From Bacilli bacterium (lineage in GTDB: Bacteria > Bacillota_I > Bacilli_A > RF39 > UBA660): a stretch of DNA of 64,000 nucleotides. The notes below the pieces were generated by a model, which saw only the letters and a program-made list of their open reading frames with translations, did no database searches and was not told the DNA's origin. Position numbers and translations under genes: made by a program. This document shows positions 8,105 to 29,699 of this stretch, piece by piece (the first letter of the stretch is position 1; the number at the start of each line of letters is the position of its first letter). Location of the stretch: contig JAFSEX010000005.1 in the NCBI GenBank assembly GCA_017435465.1, forward strand, positions 6,793 to 70,792, given 5' to 3'.

Positions 8105-9211
8105 TTATTGGTGAATTTTTATGTTTATTAATTTTTCCCAAGGTAAATCTATATCTTTTCTTCCAAAATGACCATAACTAGCAATACTATAATATATTGG
8201 TTTTTGTAATTGTAATTCTTTTATAATATTTTTTACACTAAAATCAAAATTAGTATTAATAAAATTATAAATTTCTTCTAATGGTACTTTATTAGTATTG
8301 AATGTTTCTATATTTATAGATATTGGTTTTGTATTTCCTATCGCATAAGATACTCCTATTTCACAAACATCACATAGTTTATTATATACAATGTTTTTGG
8401 TAACATATCTTGCATAATAAGCCGCACTTCTATCTACTTTAGTTGGATCTTTACTACTAAAACATCCACCACCAATTTTGGCACTACCTCCGTATGAATC
8501 TACCACAATTTTTCTTCCAGTTGTACCACTATCTCCATATGGACCACCAATAGTAAATGAACCACTTGTATTTATTAATATTTGTGTTTGATTATCAATA
8601 TATTTTTTTGGTATTACTATATCTATAACTTTTTCTTTAATATAATTTTTCAATTCGGCTTGACTAATATTTTTAACATGCTGACTAGCAATAACAATTG
8701 TATTAATTCTTTTTGGAATATTATCTTCATATTATACAGATATTTGACTTTTTCCATCTGGCATTAGTGGGGAATTTTCATCTTCCTTTCTAACTTTTGT
8801 AAGTTGCATAGTTAATTTATTTGCAAGCAATATTGGAAGAGGCATATATTCTTTAGTTTCATTAGTAGCATAGCCAAACATTATACCTTGATCACCTGCA
8901 CAAATTCCATTTTTGTTAACAGCTCTATTAATCTCCCTAGATTGTTCACTCACTTTTACAATAACTTCAAAATCTTCATTATAACCAATATCCTTTAATA
9001 CCCACTTAGCAATACTCTCATAATCTAAATTAGCATTAGTAGTAGCCTCACCATAAATAAAAAGCAAGTTATCTTTTATTGTACATTCTACAGCCATTTT
9101 ACTGTTTTCATCAAATTCTAGAGCTGTATCTAGAATTTTGTCACTGATTTTATCACATATTTTATCTGGATGTCCTTCAGTAACTGATTCACTTGTTATT
9201 ATTTTTTTCAT
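8105..9211 (-). pseudogene. metK: S-adenosylmethionine synthetase interrupted by one in-frame TAA (complement of 8732-8734)
   Basis: The two track ORFs are the same reading frame. It reads ...PDGKSQISV-TAA-YEDNIPKRINTIVIASQH..., with the stop sitting where MetK proteins have Glu (TVEYD). ESVTEGHPDK and GGGCFSSKDPTKVDRSAAY motifs are intact. The start at 9211 follows SD AAGGAGG. Confidence 0.8.
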
Positions 9212-9242
9212 CTTATCCTCCTTCTTAGCTTTTACCAAAAAT

Positions 9243-9372
9243 AAAAAACTCTTGAAAGAGTTTTAATTTATCTTTATTTATACTCCTTCATCGGTATTAG
9301 CAGAACCACCTTACATATGCAGGTTGGTATGAGTTCATAGAGCTAATTCTCTCCCTCATTCTTGATAAAAGT
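9243..9372 (-). promoter_or_regulatory. SAM-I (S-box) riboswitch with intrinsic terminator, leader of metK
   Basis: The minus strand reads CTTTTATCAAGAATGAGGGAGAGAATTAGCTCTATGAACTCATACCAACC...GGTGGTTCTGCTAATACCGATGAAGGAG. A hairpin AAAACTCTTTCAAGAGTTTT plus T-run follows. This matches the S-box consensus as remembered. Confidence 0.75.
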
Positions 9373-10841: not shown

Positions 10842-10920
10842 AAAAACGAACTATTACTAGTTCGATTCATTTCAATGGAGCGGTTAAGCTACAGCTTACG
10901 AACTAATTAGTTCTTTTTTT
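10842..10920 (-). ncRNA. candidate small RNA, repeat copy A (unknown family)
   Basis: Minus-strand TTGAAA-17 nt-TATAAT promoter (10955-10927). Two hairpins follow, then a single-stranded AACCGCUCCAUUGA segment and a terminator CGAACTAGTAATAGTTCG plus U-run. Confidence 0.5.
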
Positions 10921-11098
10921 GAGTTTATTATAAGACATTTAAAAATGATTTTCAATATTATGTATAAAAAGATTAGAAAAAGAAAAAATTCCATCCACAG
11001 TACAAAATTGTCGAAAAAAGAGATTTTGTTTAGTACAGTAAACAAAATTGACAAACATTAAAATTAATAGTATAATTAGTTTAGAAAAGAGGAATAGT

Positions 11099-12307
11099 AT
11101 GATTATTAGGGAAAAATACTTATCAAAGATAAGACCTTTTTATGATCAAGATTTAATTAAAGTTATTACTGGTATAAGAAGATGTGGAAAATCAGTTATT
11201 TTAAATCAGATAATAGATGAATTAAAAGAAAAAGGAATTAAAGATGAACAAATAATATATATTAATTTTGAATTTGAAAATTACTATAATCTTTGCAATC
11301 ATATAGAATTCAATAATTATATTGAAGATAAAATAAAAGATAATAAAAAATATTACCTGTTCTTTGATGAAATTCAAAAAGTTGATAAATGGGAATTAGC
11401 TGTTAATTCTTTTAAAGCGGTACATGGAGATAAGGTTTCAATATTTATAACTGGATCTAATAGTGATTTATTATCTGGAGAACTTGCTACTCATATTGCA
11501 GGTCGTTATGTAAGTTTTAAAATATATCCTTTTACTTTTAAAGAAGTTTGTGAATTAAAAAACATTACTGATAAAGATAAATATGAATTGCAAAATTATT
11601 TTGATGATTATATTGTTTGGGGTGGTATGCCACAAAGATTTTTGATGACTGATGAAGAACAAACAAGAACTTATTTATCGGACATTTATAATTCAATAGT
11701 TATTAAAGATATTGTAGAAAGATTTAAAATAAAAGATTTAGATTTATTTAATAGGATTGTTGAATATATTGTTACTACACCATCTCAAACTTTCTCAGCA
11801 GAAAATCTCTCAAACTATCTATTAAAAGATAATATTGAAGTTTCAAAAATAACAATATATAACTATTTGGAATATATGTGTAGAGCATTATTAATTAACA
11901 AAGCGGAAAGATATGATGTTAGAGGAAAGAGAATTTTAAATGGGAAATATAAATATTATTTAGCTGATTTAGGATTAGGGCAAATTATTAATAAAGAAAG
12001 AAAAAAACAAATGGGTGCTTATTTAGAAAATATAGTTTATAATGAATTAATATCTCGTGGATACGATGTTAAAGTGGGTACATTTGAAAATGGTGAAATA
12101 GACTTTATTGCAACAAAATTTGAAGAAAAATTATATTTTCAAGTTGCATACATTTTAGCAGATGAAGAAGTAATAGAAAGAGAATTTGGTGCATATAAAG
12201 GAATTGATGATAATTATCCTAAATATGTTATTACAATGGATAAATTTGATATGTCACAAAATGGAATAATTCATAAAAATATTATTGATTGGTTATTAGA
12301 AATCTAA
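11099..12307 (+). CDS. AAA-family ATPase of the AAA_14/DUF4143 type
   Basis: Walker A GIRRCGKS and Walker B LFFDEIQ. The start was moved to ATG 11099, behind SD AAGAGGAA and promoter TTGACA-17-TATAAT (11048-11076). Confidence 0.65.
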   Translation: MIIREKYLSKIRPFYDQDLIKVITGIRRCGKSVILNQIIDELKEKGIKDEQIIYINFEFENYYNLCNHIEFNNYIEDKIKDNKKYYLFFDEIQKVDKWELAVNSFKAVHGDKVSIFITGSNSDLLSGELATHIAGRYVSFKIYPFTFKEVCELKNITDKDKYELQNYFDDYIVWGGMPQRFLMTDEEQTRTYLSDIYNSIVIKDIVERFKIKDLDLFNRIVEYIVTTPSQTFSAENLSNYLLKDNIEVSKITIYNYLEYMCRALLINKAERYDVRGKRILNGKYKYYLADLGLGQIINKERKKQMGAYLENIVYNELISRGYDVKVGTFENGEIDFIATKFEEKLYFQVAYILADEEVIEREFGAYKGIDDNYPKYVITMDKFDMSQNGIIHKNIIDWLLEI

Positions 12308-12317
12308 AACAAAAAAA

Positions 12318-12350
12318 AGAAACACGGTATATGAACTGTGTTTCTTTTTT
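12318..12350 (+). terminator. intrinsic terminator after the ATPase gene
   Basis: Stem AGAAACAC...GTGTTTCT plus T-run. Confidence 0.7.
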
Positions 12351-12420
12351 ATGTGTATATACTATCAAAAAATATTATCATCGTATTCGACCACTTTTCG
12401 ATTGTAATAAATTTATGTAT

Positions 12421-12502
12421 AAAAAAACGAACTAAAAAAGTTCGACTAAATATCAAATGGAGCGGTTAAGTTACAACTTGCGAACTAATTAGTTCTCTTT
12501 CT
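12421..12502 (-). ncRNA. candidate small RNA, repeat copy B
   Basis: Same module as copy A: TTGAAA-17-TATAAT on the minus strand (12537-12509), hairpins, AACCGCUCCAUUUGA, and terminator CGAACTTTTTTAGTTCG plus U-run. Confidence 0.5.
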
Positions 12503-12663
12503 ATAATTATTATAAGACAATTAAAAATAATTTTCAATATTATGTATAAAAAGATTAGAAAAAATATTCCAAAATTTTCCAATATACATTGACAAATAAT
12601 GACAAATTTTATAATATAAGTCTTGAAAAGTTTTAACTTGTTAATGTGAGAGGGGAAATATTA

Positions 12664-12749
12664 ATGAGATTAGATACTGTTACAAATTTATATTTAATGT
12701 TTATTAATGAGGGTAGAAGTACATTATAGGGACTTTTGCCCTCTTTTTT
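12664..12749 (+). promoter_or_regulatory. 21-codon leader ORF overlapping an intrinsic terminator (attenuator) upstream of the GNAT/rSAM operon
   Basis: SD GAGAGGGG then ATG 12664, encoding MRLDTVTNLYLMFINEGRSTL with stop at 12727-12729. The last 7 sense codons form the 5' arm of a 12-bp hairpin (12709-12743) followed by TTTTTT. Confidence 0.5.
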
Positions 12750-12767
12750 GATAGGAGAATGATAAAG

Positions 12768-13229
12768 ATGAATTTTATAATAAGAAAAGCAGATGTAAAA
12801 GATGCAAAAATTGCTAATAACTTTTTAACAAAACTAATTCAGGATGAAAAAAAATATGACGATAATATTAATGAAAATTGCGTTGTACACACATTATATG
12901 AAAATATAATTGAAAACGAACAAAATTGTATTTTTATAGCAGAAAATAAAGGGATTATAATGGGATATCTATATGGATTTGTTTTAAATGGTGGAGATGC
13001 ATATATTGATGTTGTTACACAACTTGATGCAATGTTCGTTGATGAAGAATATAGAAAACTTGGTATTGGTAATGCACTTATTGATGAATTTAAAAAATGG
13101 TCAAAACAAAAAAATGCAAAATACATTGAATTAAAAGTATGTAATAATAATGAGAACGCAATTTCATTATACAAAAAAAATGGATTTGAAAATGTTAAAA
13201 CTATTATGACATTAGAATTGGGGGATTAG
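12768..13229 (+). CDS. GNAT family N-acetyltransferase
   Basis: The acetyl-CoA site pattern RKLGIGNALIDEF and an NGF tail are present. Start ATG 12768 chosen because it lies 9 nt after SD AGGAGA; ATG 12759 abuts the SD. Confidence 0.7.
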   Translation: MNFIIRKADVKDAKIANNFLTKLIQDEKKYDDNINENCVVHTLYENIIENEQNCIFIAENKGIIMGYLYGFVLNGGDAYIDVVTQLDAMFVDEEYRKLGIGNALIDEFKKWSKQKNAKYIELKVCNNNENAISLYKKNGFENVKTIMTLELGD

Positions 13230-13230
13230 T

Positions 13231-14571
13231 ATGAAATTATCAAAATATTTTCATTATATTGAATTAGAAAACAACATATATGCAGTTTATAATTCATTAA
13301 TAATGGATGTAGTTTTTGTAAATAAATCTAAACTTGATGAAATAATAAATATTTCAGTTGATGACGAAGAAAAAGTAAAATTACAAAATTTAGGAATATA
13401 TATTACAAGTAAAGAACAGGATGAAGAAGCATTACAAATTGTAAAAAATAGATATGATGAAGTTACAGGTAAAGTTAATATTATGTATTTAATACTTTCA
13501 TCTGCATGTAATCTAGCATGTAAATATTGTTTTATAGAAAATTGTACATTTAATAATAAAGTAGAAATAAATATGAATTTAGATACAGTAAAAAATGCTA
13601 TTACTAAATATGATAATTATTTAAAAAGAGAAAATTTAGAAGAAGGATTAATCATTTTTTATGGTGGAGAACCACTTGTAAATTGGGATGCAATAGTTAC
13701 TGCTATTGAACTTGCAAAAGAATTAAAATCTCCTATAAAATTTTCAATGGTTACTAATGCAACTTTACTTACTGCTGAAAAGATTAAGTATTTAACAGAA
13801 AATAATGTTGAGATAGGAATTTCAATAGATGGACCTAAAGCATTAAACGATAAAAATAGAATTTATAGAACAAACGAAAAAAGTGTATATGATGAAGTAA
13901 TATCAAAATTCCCATTATTAAAAGCAGAAGAATGTAAATTTGGATTATCGATAACAGTTTCTGAAGATTTTTTGGATCAACAAGATGAAGTTTTAGATTG
14001 GTTAGAGCATCTTGGCGTAAGTAGCATATTTTATAATTTATATCACTATACTTGTTATGATGAAAATTGGGAAGAATATTACAATAGAGCAAGTAAATTT
14101 TTAATGAAATCATATGAAAAATTAGCAAGTCATAATATATATGATGGTAGATTAAATAGAAAAATAGATAGTATAATTGATAGTGAATTTAAATTTGCAG
14201 ATTGCGGAGCAATTGGCGGAAATCAACTTGCAATAAAACCTAGTGGTGATGTATGTATTTGTCATGGATATTTAAAAACTGATAAATATGTAATAGGTAA
14301 TGTTAATAAACAATCTATTGATGAATTAATGGATACTGATGAAATAAGATTCTGGAAAAGAAGAAGTACAATATATAATGATGAATGTTTAAATTGTGAA
14401 GCTATTTATACATGTGGAGGCGGATGTGCAATTCAAGCCGAAGCATTGTTTGGAAATAGAAATGAAATAGACAAACCATTTTGTATTCACACTAAAAGTG
14501 CATTAAGGTGGATACTTCAAAGAAGTTATAATAAAATGGTAGAAAATGAAAAGGAGGTGATAAAATGTTAG
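13231..14571 (+). CDS. radical SAM/SPASM-domain peptide maturase with N-terminal RRE-like region
   Basis: CNLACKYC CX3CX2C cluster. C-terminal Cys-rich SPASM region (CGAIGG...CICHG...CLNCEAIYTCGGGCAIQA...FCIH). About 85 aa lie before the rSAM core. Confidence 0.8.
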   Translation: MKLSKYFHYIELENNIYAVYNSLIMDVVFVNKSKLDEIINISVDDEEKVKLQNLGIYITSKEQDEEALQIVKNRYDEVTGKVNIMYLILSSACNLACKYCFIENCTFNNKVEINMNLDTVKNAITKYDNYLKRENLEEGLIIFYGGEPLVNWDAIVTAIELAKELKSPIKFSMVTNATLLTAEKIKYLTENNVEIGISIDGPKALNDKNRIYRTNEKSVYDEVISKFPLLKAEECKFGLSITVSEDFLDQQDEVLDWLEHLGVSSIFYNLYHYTCYDENWEEYYNRASKFLMKSYEKLASHNIYDGRLNRKIDSIIDSEFKFADCGAIGGNQLAIKPSGDVCICHGYLKTDKYVIGNVNKQSIDELMDTDEIRFWKRRSTIYNDECLNCEAIYTCGGGCAIQAEALFGNRNEIDKPFCIHTKSALRWILQRSYNKMVENEKEVIKC

Positions 14572-14744
14572 AAATGAATAAAAAAGAAGTTGCAAAAAAA
14601 TTCAGAATTGATGCAAAAGCATATGCTTCTGTATGTAACAGTTGTGCATGTGGAGGTGGAACATCTAGTTGCAATACAACTTGTAAAGGTTGTAAAGACA
14701 AAAGCGAAAACATAAAATCAGTAAAGAATGTATATGCAAAATAA
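14565..14744 (+). CDS. 59-aa Cys-rich precursor peptide candidate (six Cys in 20 residues); below the 60-aa cutoff of the ORF track
   Basis: SD AAGGAGGTGATAAA then ATG, overlapping the maturase stop by 7 nt. Encodes MLEMNKKEVAKKFRIDAKAYASVCNSCACGGGTSSCNTTCKGCKDKSENIKSVKNVYAK, followed by a terminator. Confidence 0.7.
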   Translation: MLEMNKKEVAKKFRIDAKAYASVCNSCACGGGTSSCNTTCKGCKDKSENIKSVKNVYAK

Positions 14745-14752
14745 TTAAATTT

Positions 14753-14780
14753 ATAAGGTTATCTAATAACCTTATTTTAT
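14753..14780 (+). terminator. intrinsic terminator after the peptide gene
   Basis: Stem ATAAGGTTA/TAACCTTAT with a 5-nt loop, then TTTT. Confidence 0.65.
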
Positions 14781-14800
14781 TATACAGGGGGGGAATACTA

Positions 14801-15784
14801 ATGATTATAGATACTCATAGTCATATTGGTAATGATTTTTATTGTGGCAATATAAAAATACAAGATTATATACAATTTTGCAAAAAAAATAAAATAGACA
14901 TTGGATTTCTAATGCCTACACCTTGGCCACAATACAAAGATAATAATCAATATGTTACATCTTTGATATGGGAACATGACAACTATATTAAAAAGAATTA
15001 TTATTCATTAATAAACGGAAATAAAGTATCAATTGAAAGTAATCCATATAAAAATGTTAATTATAATTGTTTTGATGAAATTAATAAAAATCATTGTAGC
15101 GATATTCAATTATATTTTGTACCACTTATTCATGGAGTATTAGATAATGCAAATTATTTAGAAAAGATGTTAGGTGAATTAAACCCAAAAGCTGTAAAAA
15201 TGCATGGGTTTGGAAGTGGATTTTCTCCAACTGAAATCAAATCTGATATTGTTGAAATTTTGAAATATTATGATATACCAATTATACTTCATACATCAGT
15301 ATATAATTATGATTATGGATATGGGGCAGACACAAAATATTGGAGAAATGAATGTCATCCCTATAAATGGATAGAATTTTTACTTAAGAATAATTTAAAG
15401 GGTGTTCTAAATCATGGGGCATGTTTACATAATGAAACAATTGATTTAGTAAATAAATCCGAAAAAATAATGGTGGCGTTAGGTCCTGACTTAGATATTT
15501 CTAAAGATTTTTTTAAAGTTGATATACCTAAAGAAACATATTTGAAAATAGAATACCTAAAATACTTAAAACAAAAGTTGGTATCTACAAAAATATTATT
15601 TGATATCGATTATAATTGGAATGTTGATGAAAATAATAATATAGATAATAACTCTATTCAAAGAGTAAGTGAAACATGGAGCGAAAATGAGTTGGATAAC
15701 ATTTTGTATAACAATGCATTAGAGTTCTTTAAACTGTCACACAATGAAGTTAAGGCAAAAATCTTAAAAAACACAAAAAATTAG
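14801..15784 (+). CDS. metal-dependent amidohydrolase-fold (TIM barrel) protein
   Basis: N-terminal IIDTHSHIG metal-binding motif with internal H residues (KMHGF, ILHTS). SD AGGGGGGGA. Confidence 0.55.
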   Translation: MIIDTHSHIGNDFYCGNIKIQDYIQFCKKNKIDIGFLMPTPWPQYKDNNQYVTSLIWEHDNYIKKNYYSLINGNKVSIESNPYKNVNYNCFDEINKNHCSDIQLYFVPLIHGVLDNANYLEKMLGELNPKAVKMHGFGSGFSPTEIKSDIVEILKYYDIPIILHTSVYNYDYGYGADTKYWRNECHPYKWIEFLLKNNLKGVLNHGACLHNETIDLVNKSEKIMVALGPDLDISKDFFKVDIPKETYLKIEYLKYLKQKLVSTKILFDIDYNWNVDENNNIDNNSIQRVSETWSENELDNILYNNALEFFKLSHNEVKAKILKNTKN

Positions 15785-15803
15785 TACCTAAATAGTACCT
15801 AAA
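15776..15803 (+). repeat. 28-bp direct repeat copy 1 (AAAAATTAGTACCTAAATAGTACCTAAA), containing a tandem 11-mer TAGTACCTAAA x2
   Basis: Identical to 35718-35745. Overlaps the amidohydrolase stop codon. Confidence 0.9.
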
Positions 15804-15812
15804 ATAGTTTTC

Positions 15813-15897
15813 AAAAATAAAAACCCTTATTTTATAAGGGTTTGTTTTCATATGGAGCGGTTAAGTTACAACTTGCGAACTAATTAGTTCTCTTTCT
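15813..15897 (-). ncRNA. candidate small RNA, repeat copy C
   Basis: TTGAAA-17-TATAAT on the minus strand (15932-15904). The body is identical to copy B through AACCGCUCCAUAUGA. The terminator is a different hairpin, AAACCCTTATAAAATAAGGGTTT, plus U-run. Confidence 0.5.
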
Positions 15898-15996
15898 GGA
15901 TTTATTATATAATAATTGTTATAATTTTTCAAGGCGTATGGCAAATTTTAATCATTTATAGTATAATTAACTTTAAAGTGTTCAGGAGATTTAGGT

Positions 15997-17700
15997 ATGA
16001 ATATTATAAATAAATTAGAATTAGAAAATATAAAAATTGGAATTAGATATTATGGATTAGAAAATTTGTCTACTGGAATAGCAGTTAAAGACTTAATGGA
16101 AGGAAAAGAAATTATATTAAATAATTATAAAAATAATAGTATCTTATCTTTAGATGATTATATAAATTACGTTTTTTTGGATTATATTATGAAATTTCAA
16201 GAAGTTATACCATATGTTAAAGAAGATAAAAAAGAAGAATTTAAAAATTTTATAATTAATTGTAAATTAATATATGATAAATATAGATTTGCAGATATAG
16301 TAAAATACATTCAAAAGGATTACAAAGAAATTTATAATTATGATGACGATGATAATGTTGATTGTTTAGTATTTGATTTAAAAAACTATACCTCAGAATT
16401 TATTGGTGAACATTTCAATTGTTTCAATGAAGAGGTTATACAATATATAATTAACGAAGCAACATATGATGTTATAGACTATTTTGAAAAGTGGAAAAAA
16501 TTTTTTGTTAAAAATCCTGAAAAACTAAAAATTTTATTTAGTGAAGATAATATAAATAAAGTATTTCTTATGCGAATTCAAGAACTTATAGGTATAATTG
16601 AATCATTGCGTAACAACCGCAAATTTGATGAGGCAGTATTGAATGCAATGGATATTATTTATAACATATTAAAAAAACAATATTTTAATCCTGCGGGAGA
16701 ACAACATATTTGGCAAAGTTATTTTATGCTTAATGACTGTCTATCTTTTTATAGAAAAATGTATTCACCTTATGCCTATAAATTAGAGATTGAACTAGAA
16801 AAACAAGAAATTTTATTTAATGATAACTTGTTAAAAAATGGTAACAGTCAACCAATCGAGTTTGATTTAAAACCTTTCAAAGATTTTTTTGAAGATAATA
16901 CAAAACCTTGGGAAATAAGAATTGTATTTTCAACTCATTCTAGAGATGAAAATGGTAAATTAGTGAGTTTTCTAGAACAAGGTGCAAAATGCCCTATTAA
17001 AGGATTAAGTGATGAATTAGCCAGGAAAAATCCTGGAACAGATAATTATTTTACAGGTTGGAGATTAAGGAATTTATCTTTATATTCATTTGAAACAAAA
17101 TCAAAGTTTATGACTTTGATGAGTACTAATCATAATATTAGTGAATATTTATCCGACATTTATGGTGAATTACGATATATATGTGAAAATATTAATACAA
17201 CAATGGAATTTGAAGGACTAGATGAAAATATGGAAATGTTATTGCAATTTTTATCTGACTTATTTATAAATTTACCTAGCGATGTCGATGTACAACAATA
17301 TCAATTACCAATTAAAACTACTGTATATGGATGCGCTATGTTCTTATGTGGATTAATTGAAAAAGTTTTGCGTATTATATATAAAAACAGTATGAAGGAA
17401 ATATCATATATTCCAGACTCAAGTATAAATTTGGGTAATTTATTGATTGAGAATGATAAACATACATCTATAATTTTAGATATATTAGGAATTGAACAAG
17501 TTAAATGTCTTAAGTATTATCTTCAAAAAATAGATTTTTATAATGCGGTTGGACAAAATATACGTAACGATCTTGCTCACATAAATGGCAGAACAATGAA
17601 AAATTTAAATCATTACCTAATTTTAGAATTGCTGTCTTATTTTACATCAATCCTTAATAGTTGTGTTTTGTATTATCAAGGAAAAAACAAACATTCGTAG
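15997..17700 (+). CDS. hypothetical 567-aa protein with C-terminal HEPN-like Rx4H motif
   Basis: Intact ORF with SD CAGGAGA. It is cytoplasmic-looking, and GQNIRNDLAHINGR lies near the C terminus (DNA 17563-17580). Confidence 0.45.
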   Translation: MNIINKLELENIKIGIRYYGLENLSTGIAVKDLMEGKEIILNNYKNNSILSLDDYINYVFLDYIMKFQEVIPYVKEDKKEEFKNFIINCKLIYDKYRFADIVKYIQKDYKEIYNYDDDDNVDCLVFDLKNYTSEFIGEHFNCFNEEVIQYIINEATYDVIDYFEKWKKFFVKNPEKLKILFSEDNINKVFLMRIQELIGIIESLRNNRKFDEAVLNAMDIIYNILKKQYFNPAGEQHIWQSYFMLNDCLSFYRKMYSPYAYKLEIELEKQEILFNDNLLKNGNSQPIEFDLKPFKDFFEDNTKPWEIRIVFSTHSRDENGKLVSFLEQGAKCPIKGLSDELARKNPGTDNYFTGWRLRNLSLYSFETKSKFMTLMSTNHNISEYLSDIYGELRYICENINTTMEFEGLDENMEMLLQFLSDLFINLPSDVDVQQYQLPIKTTVYGCAMFLCGLIEKVLRIIYKNSMKEISYIPDSSINLGNLLIENDKHTSIILDILGIEQVKCLKYYLQKIDFYNAVGQNIRNDLAHINGRTMKNLNHYLILELLSYFTSILNSCVLYYQGKNKHS

Positions 17701-17739
17701 TTGTTTATTAGGTATATTTGTAATGATTTTGATTAAGGT

Positions 17740-17915
17740 TGTTTATTATATTCTAGATGATAATGAAAATGTAGTTAATAGGGAAATTTTAAATATATAA
17801 GATAATTGATGGTAATTAGCCTAAAAATGTTATTACAATAGATATATTTGACATACCCCAAGATGGAATAATTCATAAAAACAATATAGATTGAGTATTA
17901 GAAAAATATAATAAA
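17740..17915 (+). pseudogene. degenerate 3' remnant of a second AAA/DUF4143 ATPase gene plus its terminator
   Basis: 17800-17960 aligns by eye with 12195-12350 (GGAATAATTCATAAAAA..., AAGAAACAC...GTGTTTCTTTTTT). No intact frame remains. Confidence 0.6.
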
Positions 17916-18016
17916 AAAAAGAAACACGTTATTTCAACCTTATAAACTGTGTTTCTTTTTTTTATGTATTTAAAATTAATATAAAATATTTCTTTAATTA
18001 TAACTTAAAAATGGGA

Positions 18017-18391
18017 TTAATCTTTTTTTAAATCAAGTATTGCTTGTATGTAAGTTTCCACTTTTATTTTTTCTTCACCATCCAAGCATCTATAATTTGT
18101 TATTAAGTAAAGTTCTTTGTCGGAAAGAATAAAATCAGGTGGAGTTGGATTATCTGTCAAATCAAATAAATAATCAGTAGATGTATTTAATAATTTGGCC
18201 ATTTCTATTATAGTAGCAGTTTTAGGTTTGATTTTTCCACTAATATATTGACTCATCGCCTCCTGTGATACTTCTAATTCTACTGCTATTGAAGTTAATG
18301 ATTTATTTTTAGCTTTTACGATTTTCTTTAAATTTTTCATTGTTGTCTTTTTATTACTTTTCAAGGACTTCACCTCCATAAATTTAAACAT
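18017..18391 (-). CDS. XRE-family helix-turn-helix transcriptional regulator
   Basis: The HTH reads SLTSIAVELEVSQEAMSQYISGKIKPKTATIIEMAKLLNTSTDYL. The start is ambiguous among three in-frame ATGs. Confidence 0.7.
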   Translation of the reverse strand: MFKFMEVKSLKSNKKTTMKNLKKIVKAKNKSLTSIAVELEVSQEAMSQYISGKIKPKTATIIEMAKLLNTSTDYLFDLTDNPTPPDFILSDKELYLITNYRCLDGEEKIKVETYIQAILDLKKD

Positions 18392-18415
18392 TTATATAAA
18401 AATTATATAATTATT

Positions 18416-18457
18416 ACTTCAAATTAACTTGAAGTGTGCTATAATATATATTGAAGT
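18416..18457. promoter_or_regulatory. candidate operator/promoter between the XRE gene and the surface locus
   Basis: Perfect palindrome ACTTCAA-N6-TTGAAGT (18416-18435), a third TTGAAGT half-site at 18451, and TATAAT at 18440-18445. Confidence 0.4.
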
Positions 18458-18536
18458 AATAATTATAATTGAGAATGAAATATTAAAATGTCAATTATTG
18501 TATTTGTTACTAATTTTATATAGGAGGAAGTGTGAT

Positions 18537-21500
18537 ATGAAAAAGAAAAAAGGTTTGATTTTATTTTCAGTAATTGCTATAACTACAATATTATCTTTTG
18601 GGATATATAAAGTTTTAGCAGAACAACAATTTAATACTATTGCAACTATTGATAATGGAATAATTAATGATTTAAACGAAGAGTTTACATTAACTATTAA
18701 TGCAGATGATTTGCCAGGGGAAGGGTTAGCGTCAGGTCAATTTTATGTTGATTATAATCCAGATATATTCCAAGTAGAAACAACTAATGGAGAAATATCT
18801 GATAGTTCAATAGAATTTGGACAGGACAGAGATAATAATTTTTCTCACTCAATAAAACAATCAGACAATATAGGAAGAGTAACTGTTCTATATTATGATA
18901 ATAGTGCTAATTTAAATCAACCACTAGAAAATGGTGAGTTATTTAAATTGAAATTTAAATATATAGGCAACTTACTTGAACAAATTGATGATGAGCATGA
19001 AGAATTAATAACAATTTCTGGTGAAGGATTTTCAACAATACAAAGGGAAACAACACAAAATGGTGAAAATCTAGATATTGTCGATCTTGCTTCAAAATTT
19101 AATAATGTAAATGTTGTTATTAGAAATAGAGAATTAAAAATCAACAATGTAACTTCTAATGATGACAAAATTTATAATGGTAGAGTTAATAATTTATCAT
19201 TAAATTTAACATCAATTGATTTTGATGAAAATACTGAAATTTCATTTGATATTCAAAGAGAAAATTACTATGGAGATTTAAACTTTGATGGAATAATTGA
19301 TTCAGTAGATGTAAATTATCTTGAAAGTTATTTGGCAAAAAGTAGATTTTTATCAACAATTCAATATAAAGCAGCTGACGTAAATGGAGATAATAATTTA
19401 ACACAATCTGATGTGATTATTATTCAACAATATATAAGTAATACTTCCGCTTCACATTATAAAACAGGAGAATTGATGTCGGAGGCATCAAAAAATGAAA
19501 CAAACAAATTTACTGTTTCATCAAATAATGTGGGAAGTCCAATAGATGGAATATCAACAATAAATATAAATTTAGATACATTAAATACTATAGAAGTGGG
19601 AACATATAAAGTTGTTGCCAACATTGGTGATGTAGAATCTAATGTTTATACATTCCATGTTAAAGAACAACCTGTAACAAAAGTAGAACTTGATTCAAAC
19701 GAATATACTGTAGGAATTAATAATACTAAACAGGCAAATGCAACTATAACGCCAATTAATGCTCATGTTAAAAATATTAAATGGAGTGTTGAAGATGAAA
19801 ATATTGCTACAGTTGATGAATTTGGTGTAATAACAGGTGTAAGTGAAGGTACAACTTTACTATATGCAAAAAGTATGGATGGAACATTAATTCAAACAAG
19901 TGCAACGATAAATGTTGTTAATCAAATAATCAGTATAGATTCAAATGCTTTACAATATACACCTAGCAAATCTTATGGTGCATCATCTACAGGTAAAATA
20001 TACGATAAAGATGGTGGAACAATTAAAGGGAATGTTGCTATCGCAAATACTACAACAGATAATCTAAGTTATGTACTTGTAAGAAGTGATGATAATAATC
20101 AAACAAATATCATAGATAAAGTTAATGCTAATGTTACTTTAGCACAAGCAGGAAATATACATGAATTATCAATTACAATACCTGAAGAAACATTAGAAGC
20201 AGGAAGTTATGATTTCAAAATTATAAATGGAGAAAACATTGAGTCTAATATAATTAAAATAGTGATTAATGATTATATACCTGTAACAGGAGTGAATTTA
20301 AAACATAATGGTCAAAGTATTACAGGAATTAATATCTTAAAAGGAGACCAAGTTGAATTTGTTGCAGAAGTATTACCAGAAAATGCAACTAATAAAGATT
20401 TAATTTGGGGATTATCTGGAAATAATAAATTTATTCAAACTGAAACATCAGATACTTATCATCAAACAATTAAAGCAAATGATGTTGGTGATGGGACATT
20501 ATCTATAAAAAGTGCAGAAAATGAAAGTATTTCTAAATCTATTAAAATAAATGTAATTGATCCAACAGATACAGTTGGAACATCAGAAGTAACAAGTAAT
20601 ATTGTTGGAAATAATGTTATTGATGAAAGATTTGGTGGAGTATTTACAAATATAATCAATTTTACTGACGTAGAAGACAATACTACTTTAGAAGTAAGTT
20701 TATATAATGGTAATAATACATTAATTGAAACTGATAAATATGATGTTGAATCTGATTTAACAGTTATTAATAATAGTGCTGAAATATCTATAGAAATAGG
20801 GGATAATCAACTATCATCAGGAACTTATACAGTTAAATATAAATACATTTTAAATGATGTATATAAAACTGAAAAAACAGGTTCTTATGAAATTGTTATT
20901 CATGAATTTATACCTATTGAAACAATAGAAAGCACAGTTGAAAAAATAACTCTAATTAAAGGTCAAACATATACTTTTAGTGATTATACTGTTGCTCCAT
21001 CTAATGCAACATATAAAGTATTAAAATTTGAAGTTGATAATGAAAATATAAGTTTATCAACATGGTCAAAAGCAGAATTAACTGCAAATGCTACAGGTAC
21101 ATCAATATTAACTATCAAAACTCTTGATGGTAGTGAAAAAACAAAAGAAATATTAGTAGAAGTAATTGAACATGATATACATTCTGTTCATTTTGAAGTT
21201 GATTTAAATAATAAAAAAGTAAAAAGAATAAACGATAAATTAACTTATAATAATTTATTAGATAAGATTAATAAACATAATGAAATAACAACAAAAGCAT
21301 TTAGAAATGATGTAGAAATTAATTATGAAAAAGATTTAATTGGAACAGGTACATTGCTAAAAACATATTTAAATAATAAATTATTTAATACATACACAAT
21401 GATTGTAGATGGAGATATAGATGGTAATGGTAAAGTTGTTGCAAACGACATATTATTTGTTAAATCACACATATTGAAAAAGCAAACTTTAGAGGGAATA

Positions 21501-21608
21501 TATTTTGAAGCGGGAGATATTGATAAAAATGGTTCAGCAAATGCTACTGATATTTTATATATGAAAAGATATATTTTAAGTAAGTCTGATAATGTGTGGG
21601 GTGATTAA
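18537..21608 (+). CDS. large secreted protein: N-terminal cohesin-like module, internal dockerin, several Big_2-like repeats, C-terminal dockerin
   Basis: Start at ATG 18537 behind SD TAGGAGGAAG, with a signal peptide. Cohesin-like GLASGQFYVDYNPDIF, Ca-binding repeats DLNFDGIIDSVD / DVNGDNNLTQSD, and a C-terminal pair DIDGNGKVVANDIL / DIDKNGSANATDIL. Big_2-like repeats include ATITPINA...KWSVEDENIATVD. Confidence 0.7.
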   Translation: MKKKKGLILFSVIAITTILSFGIYKVLAEQQFNTIATIDNGIINDLNEEFTLTINADDLPGEGLASGQFYVDYNPDIFQVETTNGEISDSSIEFGQDRDNNFSHSIKQSDNIGRVTVLYYDNSANLNQPLENGELFKLKFKYIGNLLEQIDDEHEELITISGEGFSTIQRETTQNGENLDIVDLASKFNNVNVVIRNRELKINNVTSNDDKIYNGRVNNLSLNLTSIDFDENTEISFDIQRENYYGDLNFDGIIDSVDVNYLESYLAKSRFLSTIQYKAADVNGDNNLTQSDVIIIQQYISNTSASHYKTGELMSEASKNETNKFTVSSNNVGSPIDGISTININLDTLNTIEVGTYKVVANIGDVESNVYTFHVKEQPVTKVELDSNEYTVGINNTKQANATITPINAHVKNIKWSVEDENIATVDEFGVITGVSEGTTLLYAKSMDGTLIQTSATINVVNQIISIDSNALQYTPSKSYGASSTGKIYDKDGGTIKGNVAIANTTTDNLSYVLVRSDDNNQTNIIDKVNANVTLAQAGNIHELSITIPEETLEAGSYDFKIINGENIESNIIKIVINDYIPVTGVNLKHNGQSITGINILKGDQVEFVAEVLPENATNKDLIWGLSGNNKFIQTETSDTYHQTIKANDVGDGTLSIKSAENESISKSIKINVIDPTDTVGTSEVTSNIVGNNVIDERFGGVFTNIINFTDVEDNTTLEVSLYNGNNTLIETDKYDVESDLTVINNSAEISIEIGDNQLSSGTYTVKYKYILNDVYKTEKTGSYEIVIHEFIPIETIESTVEKITLIKGQTYTFSDYTVAPSNATYKVLKFEVDNENISLSTWSKAELTANATGTSILTIKTLDGSEKTKEILVEVIEHDIHSVHFEVDLNNKKVKRINDKLTYNNLLDKINKHNEITTKAFRNDVEINYEKDLIGTGTLLKTYLNNKLFNTYTMIVDGDIDGNGKVVANDILFVKSHILKKQTLEGIYFEAGDIDKNGSANATDILYMKRYILSKSDNVWGD

Positions 21609-21609
21609 G

Positions 21610-22515
21610 TTGTTTAAGAAAATATTATGGATCGTTCCTTTGGTTATTTTACTTTCAACAACTAATGTATATGCTGCATCATTTGATATGGATTTGGTAA
21701 TAGACCAAACAACAGTAACTAAAGGTGAAGATTTAAATGTAAAATTATCTAATAAAAATTTAGATAATAATGGATTAGCATCAGGTCAATTTTATATTGA
21801 GTACGATACAAACTATTATAATTTCAGTTGTGATGATGTAACATATAAACGAAATGTTACATCTTCTGAAATTGATTGTAATGTGTCTAATAACCAAATA
21901 ATTATTATGTATGTTGATGAAGATGCAGGAGATAGTCCAATAACTAACGGAGAATTTTTAAATTTAAAATTCAACGTTAAAACAGGTGTTACAACTACAA
22001 CACCAACTACTTTTAAATTAAGTGGTGAAGGATTTTCAAGTGTTAATGGGAGTAAGATTGTTAATTTAACGTCTAATTCAAATATCACTAAAACTGTTTC
22101 AATAGAAAAACAAAAAAATTCAGATATTTATTTAGGAACATTAAGTATTGATGGATATAATATAGGATTTGATAAAAATAAATTTGAATATTCAATTGAA
22201 GTAGAAAACAATGTATCTAAAATAAATATAAAGGCAACTACTAATACTTCAACATCTACTGTAGTTGGTAGTGGAGAAAAAGAATTAGTAGTTGGGGATA
22301 ATAAATTTACATTAACAGTAACCGCAGAAAATGGTTCAACACAAAACTATGTTATTAATGTAAAAAGGTTAGATGTTGCAAAAGATACAGGAACAATTAA
22401 AGAAAATCCTCAAACAGGAGTAAATCATAGTGTAACAGCTATTGTGTTCATACTTATAGCAGGTGTTGCTACATTATATATTACAAGAAAGAGAAATTTC
22501 TTTCCAAAGATTTAA
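21610..22515 (+). CDS. cell-wall-anchored cohesin-like scaffold with cadherin-like beta-sandwich module and NPQTG sorting signal
   Basis: Signal peptide, GLASGQFYIEYDTNYY, and a LSIDGYNIGFDKNKFEYSIEV module. NPQTG (22405-22419) is followed by a hydrophobic helix and an RKRNFFPKI tail. The start is TTG 21610 or ATG 21592. Confidence 0.65.
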   Translation: MFKKILWIVPLVILLSTTNVYAASFDMDLVIDQTTVTKGEDLNVKLSNKNLDNNGLASGQFYIEYDTNYYNFSCDDVTYKRNVTSSEIDCNVSNNQIIIMYVDEDAGDSPITNGEFLNLKFNVKTGVTTTTPTTFKLSGEGFSSVNGSKIVNLTSNSNITKTVSIEKQKNSDIYLGTLSIDGYNIGFDKNKFEYSIEVENNVSKINIKATTNTSTSTVVGSGEKELVVGDNKFTLTVTAENGSTQNYVINVKRLDVAKDTGTIKENPQTGVNHSVTAIVFILIAGVATLYITRKRNFFPKI

Positions 22516-22524
22516 GGAGAATTT

Positions 22525-23592
22525 ATGAAGAAAGTATTTTTAATGATTCTTCCAATATTAATGTTATTTATGCCAACAGTTGTAAATGCTAGTACTAATT
22601 TTAATACTAGCATTTCTGTTAGTAGTAGTGATATTAAATTGGATAAAGAGTTTAGTATATCAATTAATTTATCAAATTTAAGTAGTTCAGGTTTAGCATC
22701 TGGACAATATTATATCTCATACGATAAAAGTAAAATGTCGTATTTAGGATATTCAGTAGGACAAAATAAACCTGCAGCAGATTATAGTGTAAGTGATAAC
22801 AATGGTAATATTGTTGTATTATATGTAGATAATACAGCAGGAGAAAACATATTAAAAAATGGTGTGTTTGCTACTTTAAGATTTAAAGCAATAAAAGAGG
22901 GAACAGGTAGTATTAATTTGTCTGGTGAGGGTTTTGCAACTATTACTGATTCAATTATTGATTTATCAACAAATACTGCTAATAAATCAATTACAATAAC
23001 AAAAGAAGTTGTTGTTCCGCCGGCACAAGAGGAAAATAAAAATAATAACAATAGCAATAATACAAACAACAATAGTAATTCAAATAATACTTCAAATAAA
23101 ACTGAAACTAAAAAAGAAGAAGTAAAAAAAGAAGAATCAAAATTAAGTAATGATGCATTATTAAAAAAATTGGAAATAAAGGAATTAGAATTAAAGTTTA
23201 GTAGTGATAAAACTGATTATAAAATATCAGTACCTTATGAAACTACTAAATTAAATATAAGTTATGAGACTTCACATGATAAAGCAACTGTAGAATTAGA
23301 TAATAAACCATTACAAGTAGGTAACAATGAAATAACAATTAAAGTAATTGCTGAAGATAAAACAGAAAAAATATATAAAATAACAGTTACAAGAAATGAA
23401 GAACTACCTGTTATAGATTTAGATGATGATAACGAAAAGAATGATATAGAAATAGAAAAACAAGATAATGCTGAACCTAAAGAGAATAATACAACAAAAA
23501 TTATTGTTTGTTCAATAGTAATAATATTATCATTAGTACTTGGAGGATATGCATTATATATTACTATTAAAAAGGATGTGAAAGAAGTATGA
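22525..23592 (+). CDS. membrane-anchored cohesin-like scaffold with N/K/E-rich linker and cadherin-like module
   Basis: Signal peptide, GLASGQYYISYDKSKM, an Asn-rich low-complexity linker, LEIKELELKFSSDKTDYKISV, and a C-terminal TM helix. Confidence 0.6.
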   Translation: MKKVFLMILPILMLFMPTVVNASTNFNTSISVSSSDIKLDKEFSISINLSNLSSSGLASGQYYISYDKSKMSYLGYSVGQNKPAADYSVSDNNGNIVVLYVDNTAGENILKNGVFATLRFKAIKEGTGSINLSGEGFATITDSIIDLSTNTANKSITITKEVVVPPAQEENKNNNNSNNTNNNSNSNNTSNKTETKKEEVKKEESKLSNDALLKKLEIKELELKFSSDKTDYKISVPYETTKLNISYETSHDKATVELDNKPLQVGNNEITIKVIAEDKTEKIYKITVTRNEELPVIDLDDDNEKNDIEIEKQDNAEPKENNTTKIIVCSIVIILSLVLGGYALYITIKKDVKEV

Positions 23593-26500
23593 AAAAATGG
23601 AAAAACAAAAAATTAATTATCATCTTATCATTCTTTTTCGTCTTTGCACTAGTAAGTGCGTTTATAAATAATGCATTTTTTAAACCTACTAAATTAAATG
23701 CATTTATTACCGCAAAAATTTACAAAAGTCCTTCAAATATTTCATTTAAAGATGATGCGTTATATAAATGCGTTATTGATGCTTATAACATTCAAAATAA
23801 TACAGAAGAACCATATACAACAAGTTTGTCTGAAACTCAATTGTCAACAATAGAAAATTTAGCTTGTTCTGGAACAATATATGAAGTTGATGGAATTGAA
23901 ACTTTAACTAATTTAAAGAAATTAGATATTATTCTTGATACCTATAGATATTACAATATAGATATTTCAAATAAAGAGTTACAAGAAATTAATATTATTG
24001 CGTCAGATAATCTATTATTAAATCTTGAACAAGCGACAAAACTTACAAAATTACATGTTGATGTAGGAGAAATATTAGGTACTTTAGATTTAAGTAATAA
24101 CATTGATCTGACTGATTTAAAAATAGACACTTCCAAATATGGGACTTATACAGGTGATAAATTGATACTAAATAATAATATTAATTTAAAAAGTCTAGAT
24201 TTAAATATTACTTCATATTCTTTTGGTGAAGTCCTTGATATATCATCCAATACCAACCTAGAAAAATTAAAGATACATGATGGATATATGAGTGAAATTA
24301 TTTTTAGTAATTATCAAGACCTAAAAGAAATAGACTTTAGTTTAGGTGATTTAGCTACCGAAGTAAATTTAAATAAAATGCCTAATTTGGAAAAATTAAA
24401 AATCCATAACAATGGGTCTGAAATACTTGGGTTTTCTGAGTTAACTAAATTAAAAGAAATAAATTTAAATTATAATACATATATAGATACATTGGATTTG
24501 AGTAATAGTTCATATTTGGAATCAGCAAATTTAATTGGAAATGGATTTATTTCTGTTACACTAGATAGTGATAGCTTAGAAACAGTCAATGTATCTAACA
24601 ACAATAATAATAATTTATCTATATCAAGTAATAAATTGAATGATGTTACAATAAGTGGAAGTAAATTAAAAACATTAGTGTTTAACAATAATACTATTGA
24701 TACACTTAATTTAAGTTCAACTCCATTATTAAATTCGATTACTATTGATAGTTCTGCACTTAAAAATATAAATATTCAAGATAGTTCTGAACCATTATCA
24801 AGTTTAACTGTTTCTATTTCCGGAACAGAAGAAATGAGTCTTAATGGTAAAGTAAATGAATTAAATTTAGAAAGTCCAACCCTTAAAAATTTGAACGTAA
24901 GTAATTTAGGTTTAATTAATTTAAATATTGATAATTCTACTGGTCTTGAAATATTAAATGTAAATAATAATAATTTAGATTCATTGGATTTAAATAATAA
25001 TAGTCAAATTAAAAATATAAATTTAAGCAATAATTCTATTAGTGAATTAGATATTTCATCAAATACAGAACTTTCAGAATTAATTGCAAACAGTAATAAA
25101 ATAAGTAGTATAGACTTATCAAATAATACAAAATTAGCTGTTTTAGAATTAAATGATAATCTGTTAAATGACATTGATTTTGCTAATAACAATAGATTGA
25201 TATCTTTAAAAATAAATGAAAATAATTTAAAAACACTAGATTTCAAAAATTGTACTTATTTTGAATCATTATCGGCAACTAACAATTCAAATTTAGAATA
25301 TGTTAATTTGGAAAATAATAAATATGTTGAAACAATTGATTTGTTTAGCAGTCTTAATTGTGATGGTGAACAGGATGAATATAATTCTTGTCTAAGTAAT
25401 AATGCTTTTAGAGGCAAGGTGAAATTACATCCAGAAACAAATACTATTTCATTTAGTGCATCTTCATATAAGAGAACAGGAGTTTTTAGTTCTGTACATC
25501 CCTTAATCTATAGTTGTCCAAGTCGTACATATGATTTTGCATATAACTTTTTTGAGAATTATAATCCACTTGAAAACACACATACTCTTGATTTATCTGC
25601 TGGAAATGTATTTAGAAAATATGATGGAAATATTAGATATTGTGAAACTGCTTTCTATATTGACGGTGGTCTTTACAGGGAAACAAATGCTGTTTATTTT
25701 ATAGAATTAGCGTCAAATTCTTCATATTTTATTGATACTGATGAAAATTTTATAGATATATATGATGAAAAAATTTCAAACAATATATTGGATAATTTAT
25801 CATTAAATTATGGTGAAATGAGAATTAATAATGATAAATTACAAGTGTTATTCGACAATGAAGTAATAAAAGAATTTGACATTAGGACAACCTATGTTTC
25901 ACCAATCAATATAAATAATAAAGTTTTATCGAATACAATTAACAATGATAATAGCTGGTATAAAGGTTATAATGGAAATTTTTCATTTGATATAATCGCT
26001 AATGATGAAAATCTTGATTTAAATACTTTAAACGTTAGTGTTATTAAAAATAATAGTGATGTTAGTCATATATTTAATATTGATAAAGAAATTGTTGATG
26101 ATAAATTAACTATTAATATTTATAATATATCTGCGTCATGTGATATTGGGGATTATTATGTTAATATTAGTGATAGTAATGAGGTAATGGATACTATACT
26201 GTTTACAATATCAGAACCTACAAAAGTTAGTAATATTACTACAGAAAATATTAGAACAGTTAATGTTGATGAAATTATTGATATTAATTATAAAATTTTA
26301 CCAGAAAATGCAACCAATAAACAATTAGAATTAATAATTGCCGATGAAAGTATTGCAATAATTGAAAATGGTAAGATAAAAGGTTTAAAAGAAGGTGAAA
26401 CAACCTTAACATTAAAAGCAACTGATGGTAGTAATATTGTAAAAACAATCACTATAAAAGTTATTGATTTTGATATTAAAACTGATAAATATAATATAGA

Positions 26501-26900: not shown

Positions 26901-27023
26901 AATTATTTTATAAATAATTCACATAATTTTATAATTTTATTAAGGGTATGGGATTCCCCCATAATTTGAAAATGTTAGGAGTCCATTTTCAGTGCTTGCC
27001 AAGACAAAAATATTGATAATTCT

Positions 27024-27052
27024 AAAAACGAGGAAAATTTTTTCCTCGTTTT
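27024..27052. terminator. bidirectional intrinsic terminator
   Basis: AAAAACGAGGAAAATTTTTTCCTCGTTTT: a 9-bp stem flanked by A- and T-runs. Confidence 0.65.
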
Positions 27053-29180: not shown

Positions 29181-29375
29181 TCAAATCATCTCCTTTTGTA
29201 TATTCGTAACACTGAATTTGTACTCCCAATAAAAAAGTCACTGGTTTTATTAACCAATGACTTGTAATTTTTTTAAATTATAATATTTTTCAAATTTCAG
29301 TACTTTCATACGTGATTACCTCCGATGTATATATCTCCTAACTTGGTTTCATTATAATTTATTTTATTATTTAAG

Positions 29376-29660: not shown

Positions 29661-29699
29661 TAAAAAATGTCCTCCTTTCCAGAAAGAGAACATTTAAGT

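Follow-up and report, generated by a model that had tools for sequence, protein, structure and literature searches.

The window analysed here is a stretch of 64,000 nucleotides (nt) from a Bacilli bacterium (GenBank assembly GCA_017435465.1, contig JAFSEX010000005.1, positions 6,793–70,792), and the subject of the analysis is a short repeat module that occurs in it in three copies (A, B and C), all on the minus strand and each beside accessory genes. Every copy consists of TTGAAA, exactly 17 nt, TATAAT and then a body of ~45 nt ending ...TTAACCGCTCCA. The 39-nt core of the repeat, GAACTAATTAGTTCGYAAGYTGTARCTTAACCGCTCCAT, was located at 10875–10913, 12457–12495 and 15852–15890 (matches in shuffled sequence: 0/100), and a count over the whole assembly (1.46 Mb, 65 contigs, 24.7% G+C) returned these three copies only, all of them in this stretch. 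The promoter scan gave a score of 11/12 for each copy (10955–10927, 12537–12509 and 15932–15904, minus strand); terminator-like hairpins follow downstream at 10864–10847, 12444–12428 and 15843–15821.

A first-pass annotation, made from the letters of the sequence, had described the copies as one family of promoter-to-terminator small-RNA (sRNA) modules, each placed divergently in front of an accessory cassette. Its promoter hexamers were recovered at all three places by pattern search and promoter scan, and the divergent placement was found as described: the plus-strand gene next to copy A encodes an AAA_14/DUF4143 ATPase, copy B adjoins an operon of a GNAT protein and a radical S-adenosylmethionine (rSAM) enzyme, and copy C adjoins the gene of a 567-amino acid (aa) protein with the motif RNDLAH. 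Copies A and B share 90% identity across 108 nt, against 63% between C and A over an equal span; what C has in common with A and B is the promoter and the body only.

In module A the outward promoter (10927–10955; promoter scan and hexamer conservation) is followed by a transcribed 5' domain (10876–10920) that ends in GCTCCA (10881–10876); this hexanucleotide is referred to below as the core, and the domain is read as the right-end attachment (att) arm of a cassette A. The segment behind it, T_A (10842–10875), is the right partner of junction A; it contains the hairpin 10864–10847, lies outside the module and is followed by a convergent Sua5/YrdC gene. Module B has its outward promoter at 12509–12537 (promoter scan) and its 5' domain at 12458–12502, with the core at 12463–12458; its right partner, T_B (12421–12457, terminator 12444–12428), is at the same time the left arm of cassette A. 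Module C (promoter 15904–15932, promoter scan; 5' domain 15853–15897; core 15858–15853) forms the right end of an element of the LSR596 type (LSR, large serine recombinase), and its right partner (15777–15852) is like a tRNA-Gly trailer and contains the hairpin 15843–15821; counted with the core, this partner shows 94% identity, over 82 nt, with the tRNA-Gly(UCC) trailer. All these promoters, domains and right partners lie on the minus strand. That copy C has a different terminator had already been remarked in the first-pass annotation and is correct; it differs because every terminator is part of the following unit or of a trailer of the tRNA type.

The junction in related loci

Related loci (numbered with the prefix L) were collected by exact-pattern scans, which gave 42 stretches in species-representative genomes and 106 in metagenomes; viral contigs searched with a looser module pattern gave 0 matches. 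The window's own hairpin-1 pattern matched only one other genome, which is an undercount, most species having GAGCGTTGTAGTTC in hairpin 1. The hosts of the 42 stretches are gut metagenome-assembled genomes labelled Clostridium sp. CAG:567/571/575, Bacilli, Mollicutes or Candidatus Onthocola, i.e., RF39-like small genomes. Gene–module pairs of the window were met again elsewhere: the 567-aa protein in L047, the GNAT protein in L007 and the ATPase in L024. The T_A class was also found after other arms in L018, and right partners related to T_B are present in L136 and L147.

In over 150 related loci of RF39-like gut Bacilli the identity between strains breaks off directly behind GCTCCA. Across the relatives the promoter and ~45 transcribed nt are the only constant part; the sequence after ...CCGCTCCA differs and falls into recurrent classes (46 right-partner classes among 141 module junctions). 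In 12 contigs of one species, ~2 kb upstream of the module are 97–99% identical, a block that carries LigT-like and major facilitator superfamily (MFS)-like genes, and the similarity is lost 1–2 nt from the final A of ...CCGCTCCA. Because it ends at that nucleotide, the module is a fixed border and not a gene with its own 3' end. The promoter, the conserved body of ~45 nt and the terminator of the annotated unit stand, and its reading as a single self-contained gene was not confirmed, the sequence after ...GCTCCA being exchangeable from copy to copy.

Two other readings of the variable part were considered and rejected. For a cis-acting leader or riboswitch of a downstream gene, nothing follows on the same strand in the window, and the downstream content is variable elsewhere. 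For a guide-RNA-like arrangement with a constant handle and a variable guide, the variable parts turned out to be recurrent left arms followed by recombinase operons.

On the other side of the core, the left partners of GCTCCA junctions comprise real tRNAs (Gly-UCC, Gly-GCC and a tRNA with the anticodon CGU), the module, and a minimum of four further arm types; halves from the two sides are combined combinatorially at the single core GCTCCA. CGU-anticodon tRNAs ending ...AGCTCCA were observed as left partners of junctions with the right-partner class T6 (GCTCCA|T6) in L033, L105, L107 and L145, and because they also precede GCTCCA|T6, tRNA-Gly is not the sole anchor. An un-inserted locus was not found by DNA search in genomes of the same genus, these genomes being too divergent.

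The tRNA-Gly-anchored array and its mobile units

The six GCTCCA junctions recognised in the genome are all found on one strand of contig C28, between tRNA-Gly(UCC) (C28:80857–80930, minus strand, ~10 kb beyond the window end) and module A; GCTCCA is also the 3' end of tRNA-Gly (U73 + CCA). On the minus strand, read from the tRNA, the order is tRNA-Gly|trailer, prophage, tRNA-Gly 3' fragment, element E2a, element E2b, cassette B, cassette A, T_A and Sua5/YrdC. The window holds a tandem array downstream of tRNA-Gly(UCC), in which the arm has two back-to-back promoters, one facing the cargo and one reading outward across the junction.

Element E2a (29746–35601, minus strand, 5.9 kb, LSR663 type) is made up of a class-2 left arm with terminator (35601–35540), the open reading frame (ORF) orf115 (35534–35187), an LSR of 663 aa (35108–33117), a Mob_Pre-like protein and a right-end arm (29746–29860, minus strand, ...GTTGTAGATATCTTCGACAACTGCTCCA). 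This arm has outward promoter-like sites of its own and is related to the module (shared GTTGTAG; the arm versions in L009 and L082 also have GAAAGAG..TTGTAG). Element E2b (15853–29745, minus strand, 13.9 kb, LSR596 type) begins with a T6-like arm and terminator (29736–29708), orf94 (29660–29376), an LSR of 596 aa (29180–27390) and TnpV (27389–27051), and continues with cohesin/dockerin cargo, a helix-turn-helix protein, a 3' remnant of an ATPase gene (17795–17938), the 567-aa RNDLAH protein and module C. Cassette B (12458–15852, minus strand, 3.4 kb) has no recombinase and contains the tRNA-Gly-trailer-like left arm, a 327-aa DTHSH hydrolase-like protein, a 59-aa Cys-rich peptide, an rSAM-SPASM enzyme, the GNAT protein and module B. 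Cassette A (10876–12457, minus strand, 1.58 kb), likewise without recombinase, contains the left arm T_B, the AAA_14/DUF4143 ATPase and module A.

A discrete unit of this organisation was found in related loci, in two unrelated contexts. A unit of 3,457 bp in L043 is 100% identical (over 3,464 nt) to that in L033, L084 and L113, with different DNA on both sides, and the homology stops at GCTCCA on both borders. It runs in the order GCTCCA, T6 arm (TTTGAAAACAACTTACGA..., a hairpin and a T-run), Shine-Dalgarno sequence and 94-aa ORF, 596-aa LSR, TnpV-like protein, cargo and module; the cargo is one gene on the opposite strand, and the unit ends with the module and its GCTCCA. The form of the unit is accordingly a left arm with terminator, a segment of small ORF, LSR and TnpV that only some units have, cargo on the opposite strand and the module, every border being GCTCCA.

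The recombinase genes keep fixed positions relative to the junctions. In ~26 loci an LSR596-like gene is found upstream of the module, on its strand, and the T6 junction stands ahead of the LSR596-like gene in 8/8 loci long enough to show it; orf115-like and LSR663-like genes begin 50–600 nt past the module junction in ~21 loci. Both LSRs of the window matched the Pfam families Resolvase and Recombinase (PF00239 + PF07508); a zinc-ribbon match, below the cut-off, was obtained for the 663-aa LSR only. TnpV (PF14198, 2e-21) was assigned at 27051–27389, adjoining LSR596, and Mob_Pre (PF01076) at 32399–32974, in E2a.

It is probable that each module is the right-end att arm (P arm, here attR) of integrative elements moved by LSRs, and of recombinase-less cassettes, in RF39-like gut Bacilli. 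An attP rebuilt from the joined ends of LSR596-type elements has its dyad centre at GC|TCCA (16/26 and 15/26 matches), the symmetry being concentrated in CGTAAG(C/T)TG, ~13–21 bp from the centre; the invariance of GTTCGTAAGCTG would be explained by this imperfect attP dyad, which would also put the crossover inside the shared core. The crossover would accordingly fall within GC|TCCA. Units would have been added singly at the tRNA end, with the newest nearest to the tRNA, and cassettes A and B, without recombinase, would move only in trans, in the manner of cis-mobilizable elements (CIMEs).

The first-pass annotation had named as a contrary outcome that the repeat be the end of a known insertion sequence (IS) or miniature inverted-repeat transposable element (MITE). 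Essentially this was found, in that the repeat is a mobile-element end; the element belongs to the LSR integrative kind, not to the IS or MITEs. It is extremely improbable that the repeat is a common dispersed one, or the end of an IS or MITE, which transposition or local duplication has spread with no site-specific recombination. Three copies within 5 kb and the ~108 nt of 90% identity between A and B would agree with it; however, no transposase domains were seen in the cassettes, no terminal inverted repeats or target-site duplications were seen, and no inverted module copy flanks the units, the borders of which are direct GCTCCA repeats. One 6-bp core stands at all borders and at tRNA 3' ends as well, and the LSR genes have their fixed positions relative to the junctions.

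The module could also be a host-side pseudo-tRNA gene that serves as attB, i.e., a chromosomal landing pad outside the mobile units. It speaks for this that in one species more than 10 alternative right partners, LSR elements among them, occur behind the LigT–MFS–module block, that elements of the LSR663 type are often inserted directly after modules, and that the module end is like tRNA-Gly, one variant being weakly collinear with tRNA-Gly(UCC) (z ~2–2.5). But the 3.46-kb unit is 100% identical, module included, in different flanks; the LigT–MFS block itself has a left border GCTCCA|T6, behind a tRNA or another arm; in the present genome all three modules are inside an array anchored at a real tRNA-Gly; and the tRNA similarity is absent from the window's own variants. 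The landing pad is thus decidedly unlikely. A descent of the module from tRNA-Gly by internal deletion was considered separately and rejected as weak at best (z ~2–2.5 for one variant, ~0 for the window variants, with a Thr tRNA scoring higher).

Several points weigh against the assignment of the modules as LSR att arms. The dyad of the LSR663-type attP is only 12/26, not above shuffles, and the conserved AGAAAGAGA together with the hairpin-1 region lies outside a typical LSR site of ~50 bp and is not accounted for. Intrinsic terminators of the left arms stand between the outward promoter and the recombinase operon, so that read-through is assumed; in arrays or behind a tRNA the operon already has an upstream promoter, so that the promoter is not strictly circle-specific. 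The metagenome set was gathered by an exact 20-base pattern, and conservation within that pattern is uninformative.

The prophage, of ~38 kb, reaches the intact tRNA-Gly(UCC) and carries a tyrosine integrase at its proximal end (35730–36851, minus strand); among the tyrosine recombinase matches of the genome, none adjoins the array save this integrase. Next to it lies the displaced tRNA-Gly 3' fragment (35602–35628, minus strand, GGGTTCAGTTTCCCATCATCTGCTCCA), the left partner of the E2a junction. A perfect 28-mer with two TTAGGTACTA-type repeats was observed at 15776–15803, after module C, and at 35718–35745, at the integrase end of the prophage; a 27/28 copy is in the tRNA-Gly trailer at C28:~80750, beyond the window, and the two trailer copies have hairpin loops that are the reverse complement of each other (ATTTTAT vs ATAAAAT). 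The 28-mer repeats probably represent arm-type sites or else the att core of the phage.

A conserved protein of ~94–115 aa was observed always between the left arm and the LSR gene (29376–29660 and 35187–35534 in the window; at +50..+460 behind the junction in many loci). It gave no Pfam match and has the motif L(E/D)KTNLx(F/Y)IEP; it is a candidate directionality or accessory factor.

Outward promoter and a possible leader RNA

In the set of 85 variants, conservation is ~99% for both promoter hexamers (−35 and −10) and for AGAAAGAGA, and 45–88% for the spacer. Because the hexamers are conserved while the spacer drifts, a working promoter is argued for, and a short outward transcript from the module is plausible on these sequence grounds. 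Outward promoter-like hexamers were also seen 65–110 nt before the core in most other right-arm types that precede T6 (assigned partly by eye; the regular expression flagged only some). The nearest upstream gene is divergent in 89/94 loci, and an inward cargo promoter stands back-to-back with the outward one (ATGGCA-18-TATAAT at 15938–15967, plus strand; TTGACA-17-TATAAT at 11048–11076). From the left-arm terminator to the small-ORF/LSR operon no promoter was evident (by visual reading, not by a scan).

In the integrated state the outward promoter would give a short read-out RNA only, stopping at the terminator of the neighbour, and this RNA would be the ~80-nt sRNA of the first-pass annotation. 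Excision would put the outward promoter upstream of the left arm, behind which comes the small-ORF/LSR operon. This operon, apparently without a promoter of its own, would then be expressed from the outward promoter, as from Pcirc of ICEclc or the joint promoter of Tn4451; by this analogy the outward promoter is most likely of the Pcirc type.

At the RNA level, the compensatory pair that had been noted in hairpin 2 (C:G versus T:A) is present, and the selection on structure read from it was not upheld: among 58 distinct variants the 4th pair is C-G in 38, U.G in 7, U-A in 2 (this window only) and broken in 11. Variation in hairpin 1 is of the transition type and one-sided, its 3' strand being fixed by the search pattern, so that its set of pairs is uninformative. 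The 45-nt 5' domain folds no better than shuffles (z = −0.5), and support for a selected fold at the RNA level is weak. The annotation had not recognised the family, and Rfam gave no match on the modules: at the gathering score the window returned only an S-adenosylmethionine (SAM) riboswitch and tRNA, at E ≤ 10 nothing significant lay on the modules, and in 15 related loci, at gathering, nothing lay on or beside them. A tmRNA-like start in L075 was apparent only and was not confirmed.

A stand-alone family of trans-acting sRNAs, with an exposed CUCC seed that would bind Shine-Dalgarno sequences in the neighbouring cassettes, is very unlikely. It would be in keeping with the conserved near-consensus promoter, the terminator behind each copy, the one C:G to U:A double change and the wobble-compatible variation in hairpins 1 and 2. 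Yet conservation is limited to the first ~45 nt, the rest being exchanged from one constant nucleotide onward; 11/58 variants have lost the 4th pair of hairpin 2, the folding z is −0.5, and the Rfam search was without match. The CCGCUCCA segment is accounted for by the recombination core shared with tRNA-Gly, the module travels within mobile units, and nothing tested lent support to the pairing of CUCC with cassette Shine-Dalgarno sequences. The observation made in the first-pass annotation is real, and its sRNA interpretation is largely replaced by that of an att arm; the repeat marks the borders of cassettes and probably does not represent a family of regulatory RNAs.

A state-dependent leader would be an elaboration of the att-arm interpretation, not a replacement for it: the module RNA GUUCGUAAG would pair with the 5' strand of the T6 terminator, CUUACGAAC, as an antiterminator, so that the recombinase is read only behind a module and not behind a tRNA. 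Module and T6 share a perfect 9-bp complement; in the attP RNA of the L043 type the long-range helix is the minimum-energy structure and dominates the nascent transcript of 73 nt (−14.7 kcal/mol, z = −2.6), and the duplex z is −1.7 to −4.6 for T6-type partners only. Against this, the half-sites of an LSR would need this very inverted repeat, the window pair of module C and T6-like arm has GUUCGCAAG, its minimum-energy fold retaining the 13-bp terminator, and the other right-partner classes are without excess complementarity (mean z = −0.17). Complementarity between module and right partner is significant for T6 alone, where it coincides with the dyad, and such a leader is unlikely. Antitermination between module and terminator as a general mechanism was rejected, no excess complementarity being found outside T6.

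A wider form of the att-arm interpretation is rather unlikely as a whole. In it the arms would be transcribed mimics of tRNA-gene ends (promoter, short structured RNA, GCUCCA, terminator of the partner), and each insertion would regenerate, behind the tRNA, an attB-like landing pad that is transcribed, and rewire the promoter and leader of the promoter-less recombinase operon. The result would be an LSR-driven, integron-like platform in gut Bacilli with reduced genomes, with cargo for defence and for ribosomally synthesized and post-translationally modified peptides (RiPPs). How strongly the recombinase is expressed would depend on the state of recombination, by way of the exchanged 5' half of the leader RNA (module–T6 antitermination).

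Known systems and cargo genes

Tn4451/Tn4453 (TnpX; Clostridium perfringens/Clostridioides difficile) resemble the present elements in the LSR, in TnpV (here by LSR596), in a Mob_Pre-type protein (here in E2a) and in small size (3.5–14 kb); the TnpX-type LSR, TnpV and Mob/Pre set is present here, split over two neighbouring elements. Both also have a promoter at one end that points across the joint toward the recombinase gene. Lit. data: the joint promoter of Tn4451 reads toward the recombinase gene (Lyras & Rood 2000, as cited in PMC13023037); for Tn4451, a low specificity of target and ends identical over 2 bp are described (PMC5704250). Here, in contrast, a fixed 6-bp GCTCCA serves as the junction, at the 3' ends of tRNAs or at further arms, one arm holds the whole promoter, which is not assembled from two halves, a terminator-bearing left arm stands between promoter and gene, and recombinase-less cassettes with the same arms are stacked in arrays.

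The ssrA islands of Dehalococcoides (DsiB, a CcrB-like serine recombinase) and the staphylococcal cassette chromosome (SCC) are tandem and LSR-driven, with recombinase-less members that were read as cis-mobilizable and as grown by accretion (PMC3146451); accretion and CIMEs are treated in PMC5704250. Shared with these islands and with SCCmec are the tandem arrangement after a stable-RNA gene (or rlmH), the short direct repeats of its 3' end, the LSR module beside attL and the recombinase-less members. Different here are the target, which is the CCA end of tRNA-Gly (and of CGU-anticodon tRNAs) and not the tmRNA T-loop or rlmH, with a 6-bp repeat; the conserved distal arm of ~140 bp with two divergent promoters, shared by recombinase-bearing and recombinase-less units; and the presence of at least two LSR lineages and one tyrosine-integrase phage at one tRNA end. 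Integration into tRNA genes is normally ascribed to tyrosine integrases (PMC4383910).

ICEclc Pcirc and ICEKp1 P3'end are outward promoters at the end opposite the integrase, and the target of ICEclc is tRNA-Gly (PMC13023037, discussion). The likeness lies in this position and in the joining to the integrase side on circularisation. Their recombinases are tyrosine integrases, the elements are ICEs (integrative and conjugative elements) of large size, and promoter activity is demonstrated; here activity is deduced from sequence, and the promoter is followed by a conserved transcribed segment of ~45 nt and then by the crossover core. An integron is resembled in outline, by the ordered array of small cargo, the repeated recombination module and the newest unit expected next to the anchor, and the array is not a member of that class: there is no IntI, no folded single-stranded attC and no common Pc, each cassette has promoters of its own and the enzymes are LSRs. 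The closest LSR systems differ from the present array in the 6-bp core at the tRNA CCA end, the shared dual-promoter arm, the use of one core by several recombinase lineages, and the host clade.

What appeared to be an orphan sRNA family thereby becomes a usable marker: ...TTAACCGCTCCA and its relatives delimit mobile cassettes in uncultured RF39-type gut bacteria with genomes of ~1–1.5 Mb. The CCA end of tRNA-Gly is used by a minimum of two LSR lineages, and among the units of the arrays that they build are cassettes without recombinase, with cargo that comprises a PDC-S01-type ATPase, a protein with the HEPN motif and a cluster of rSAM enzyme and Cys-rich peptide. The natural attP/attB pairs have a short, defined sequence and are met again in many genomes, and because of this these LSRs are directly testable as tools for site-specific integration. 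For annotation it follows as a warning that a perfect promoter–hairpin–terminator unit may be a composite of the ends of two elements.

Cassette A: the ATPase matched the PADLOC candidate PDC-S01. The TTG listed as the start of its ORF (11048) is the −35 hexamer of the perfect TTGACA-17-TATAAT (11048–11076); the likely start is the in-frame ATG at 11099, following AAGAGGA. After the 567-aa gene, 17795–17989 repeats, at 83% identity, the final ~145 nt of the ATPase gene together with its terminator (compare 12193–12378), and this remnant suggests a replacement of cargo beside the module.

Cassette B: in 12759–15784 the 59-aa Cys-rich peptide (…CNSCACGGGTSSCNTTCKGCK…) directly follows the rSAM gene, and the 327-aa protein, with the start MIIDTHSH, is metal-hydrolase-like; by its gene content the cassette looks like a small RiPP-type cluster as mobile cargo.

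Element E2b: the cargo at 18429–26900 encodes four large secreted-looking proteins, one (1059 aa) with dockerin and Big_2 and one (307 aa) with cohesin; judged by these domains they are cellulosome-type parts on a mobile element in a genome of ~1.5 Mb. The 567-aa protein (15997–17700) gave no Pfam or PADLOC match and has GQNIRNDLAH near the C-terminus, an Rx4H HEPN-like motif; a close homologue in L047 is likewise divergent next to a module.

Outside the array, a SAM riboswitch (RF00162, 55.5 bits) was located at 9285–9371 (minus strand), upstream of a minus-strand gene (8732–9238). In L007 the GNAT–module pair is adjoined by an ORF of 168 aa (312–818, minus strand; start MESLILVRLDSKYCDYLRQFDKRVPYNY…RPFIGVL), which we take to resemble toxins of the ToxN/AbiQ type.

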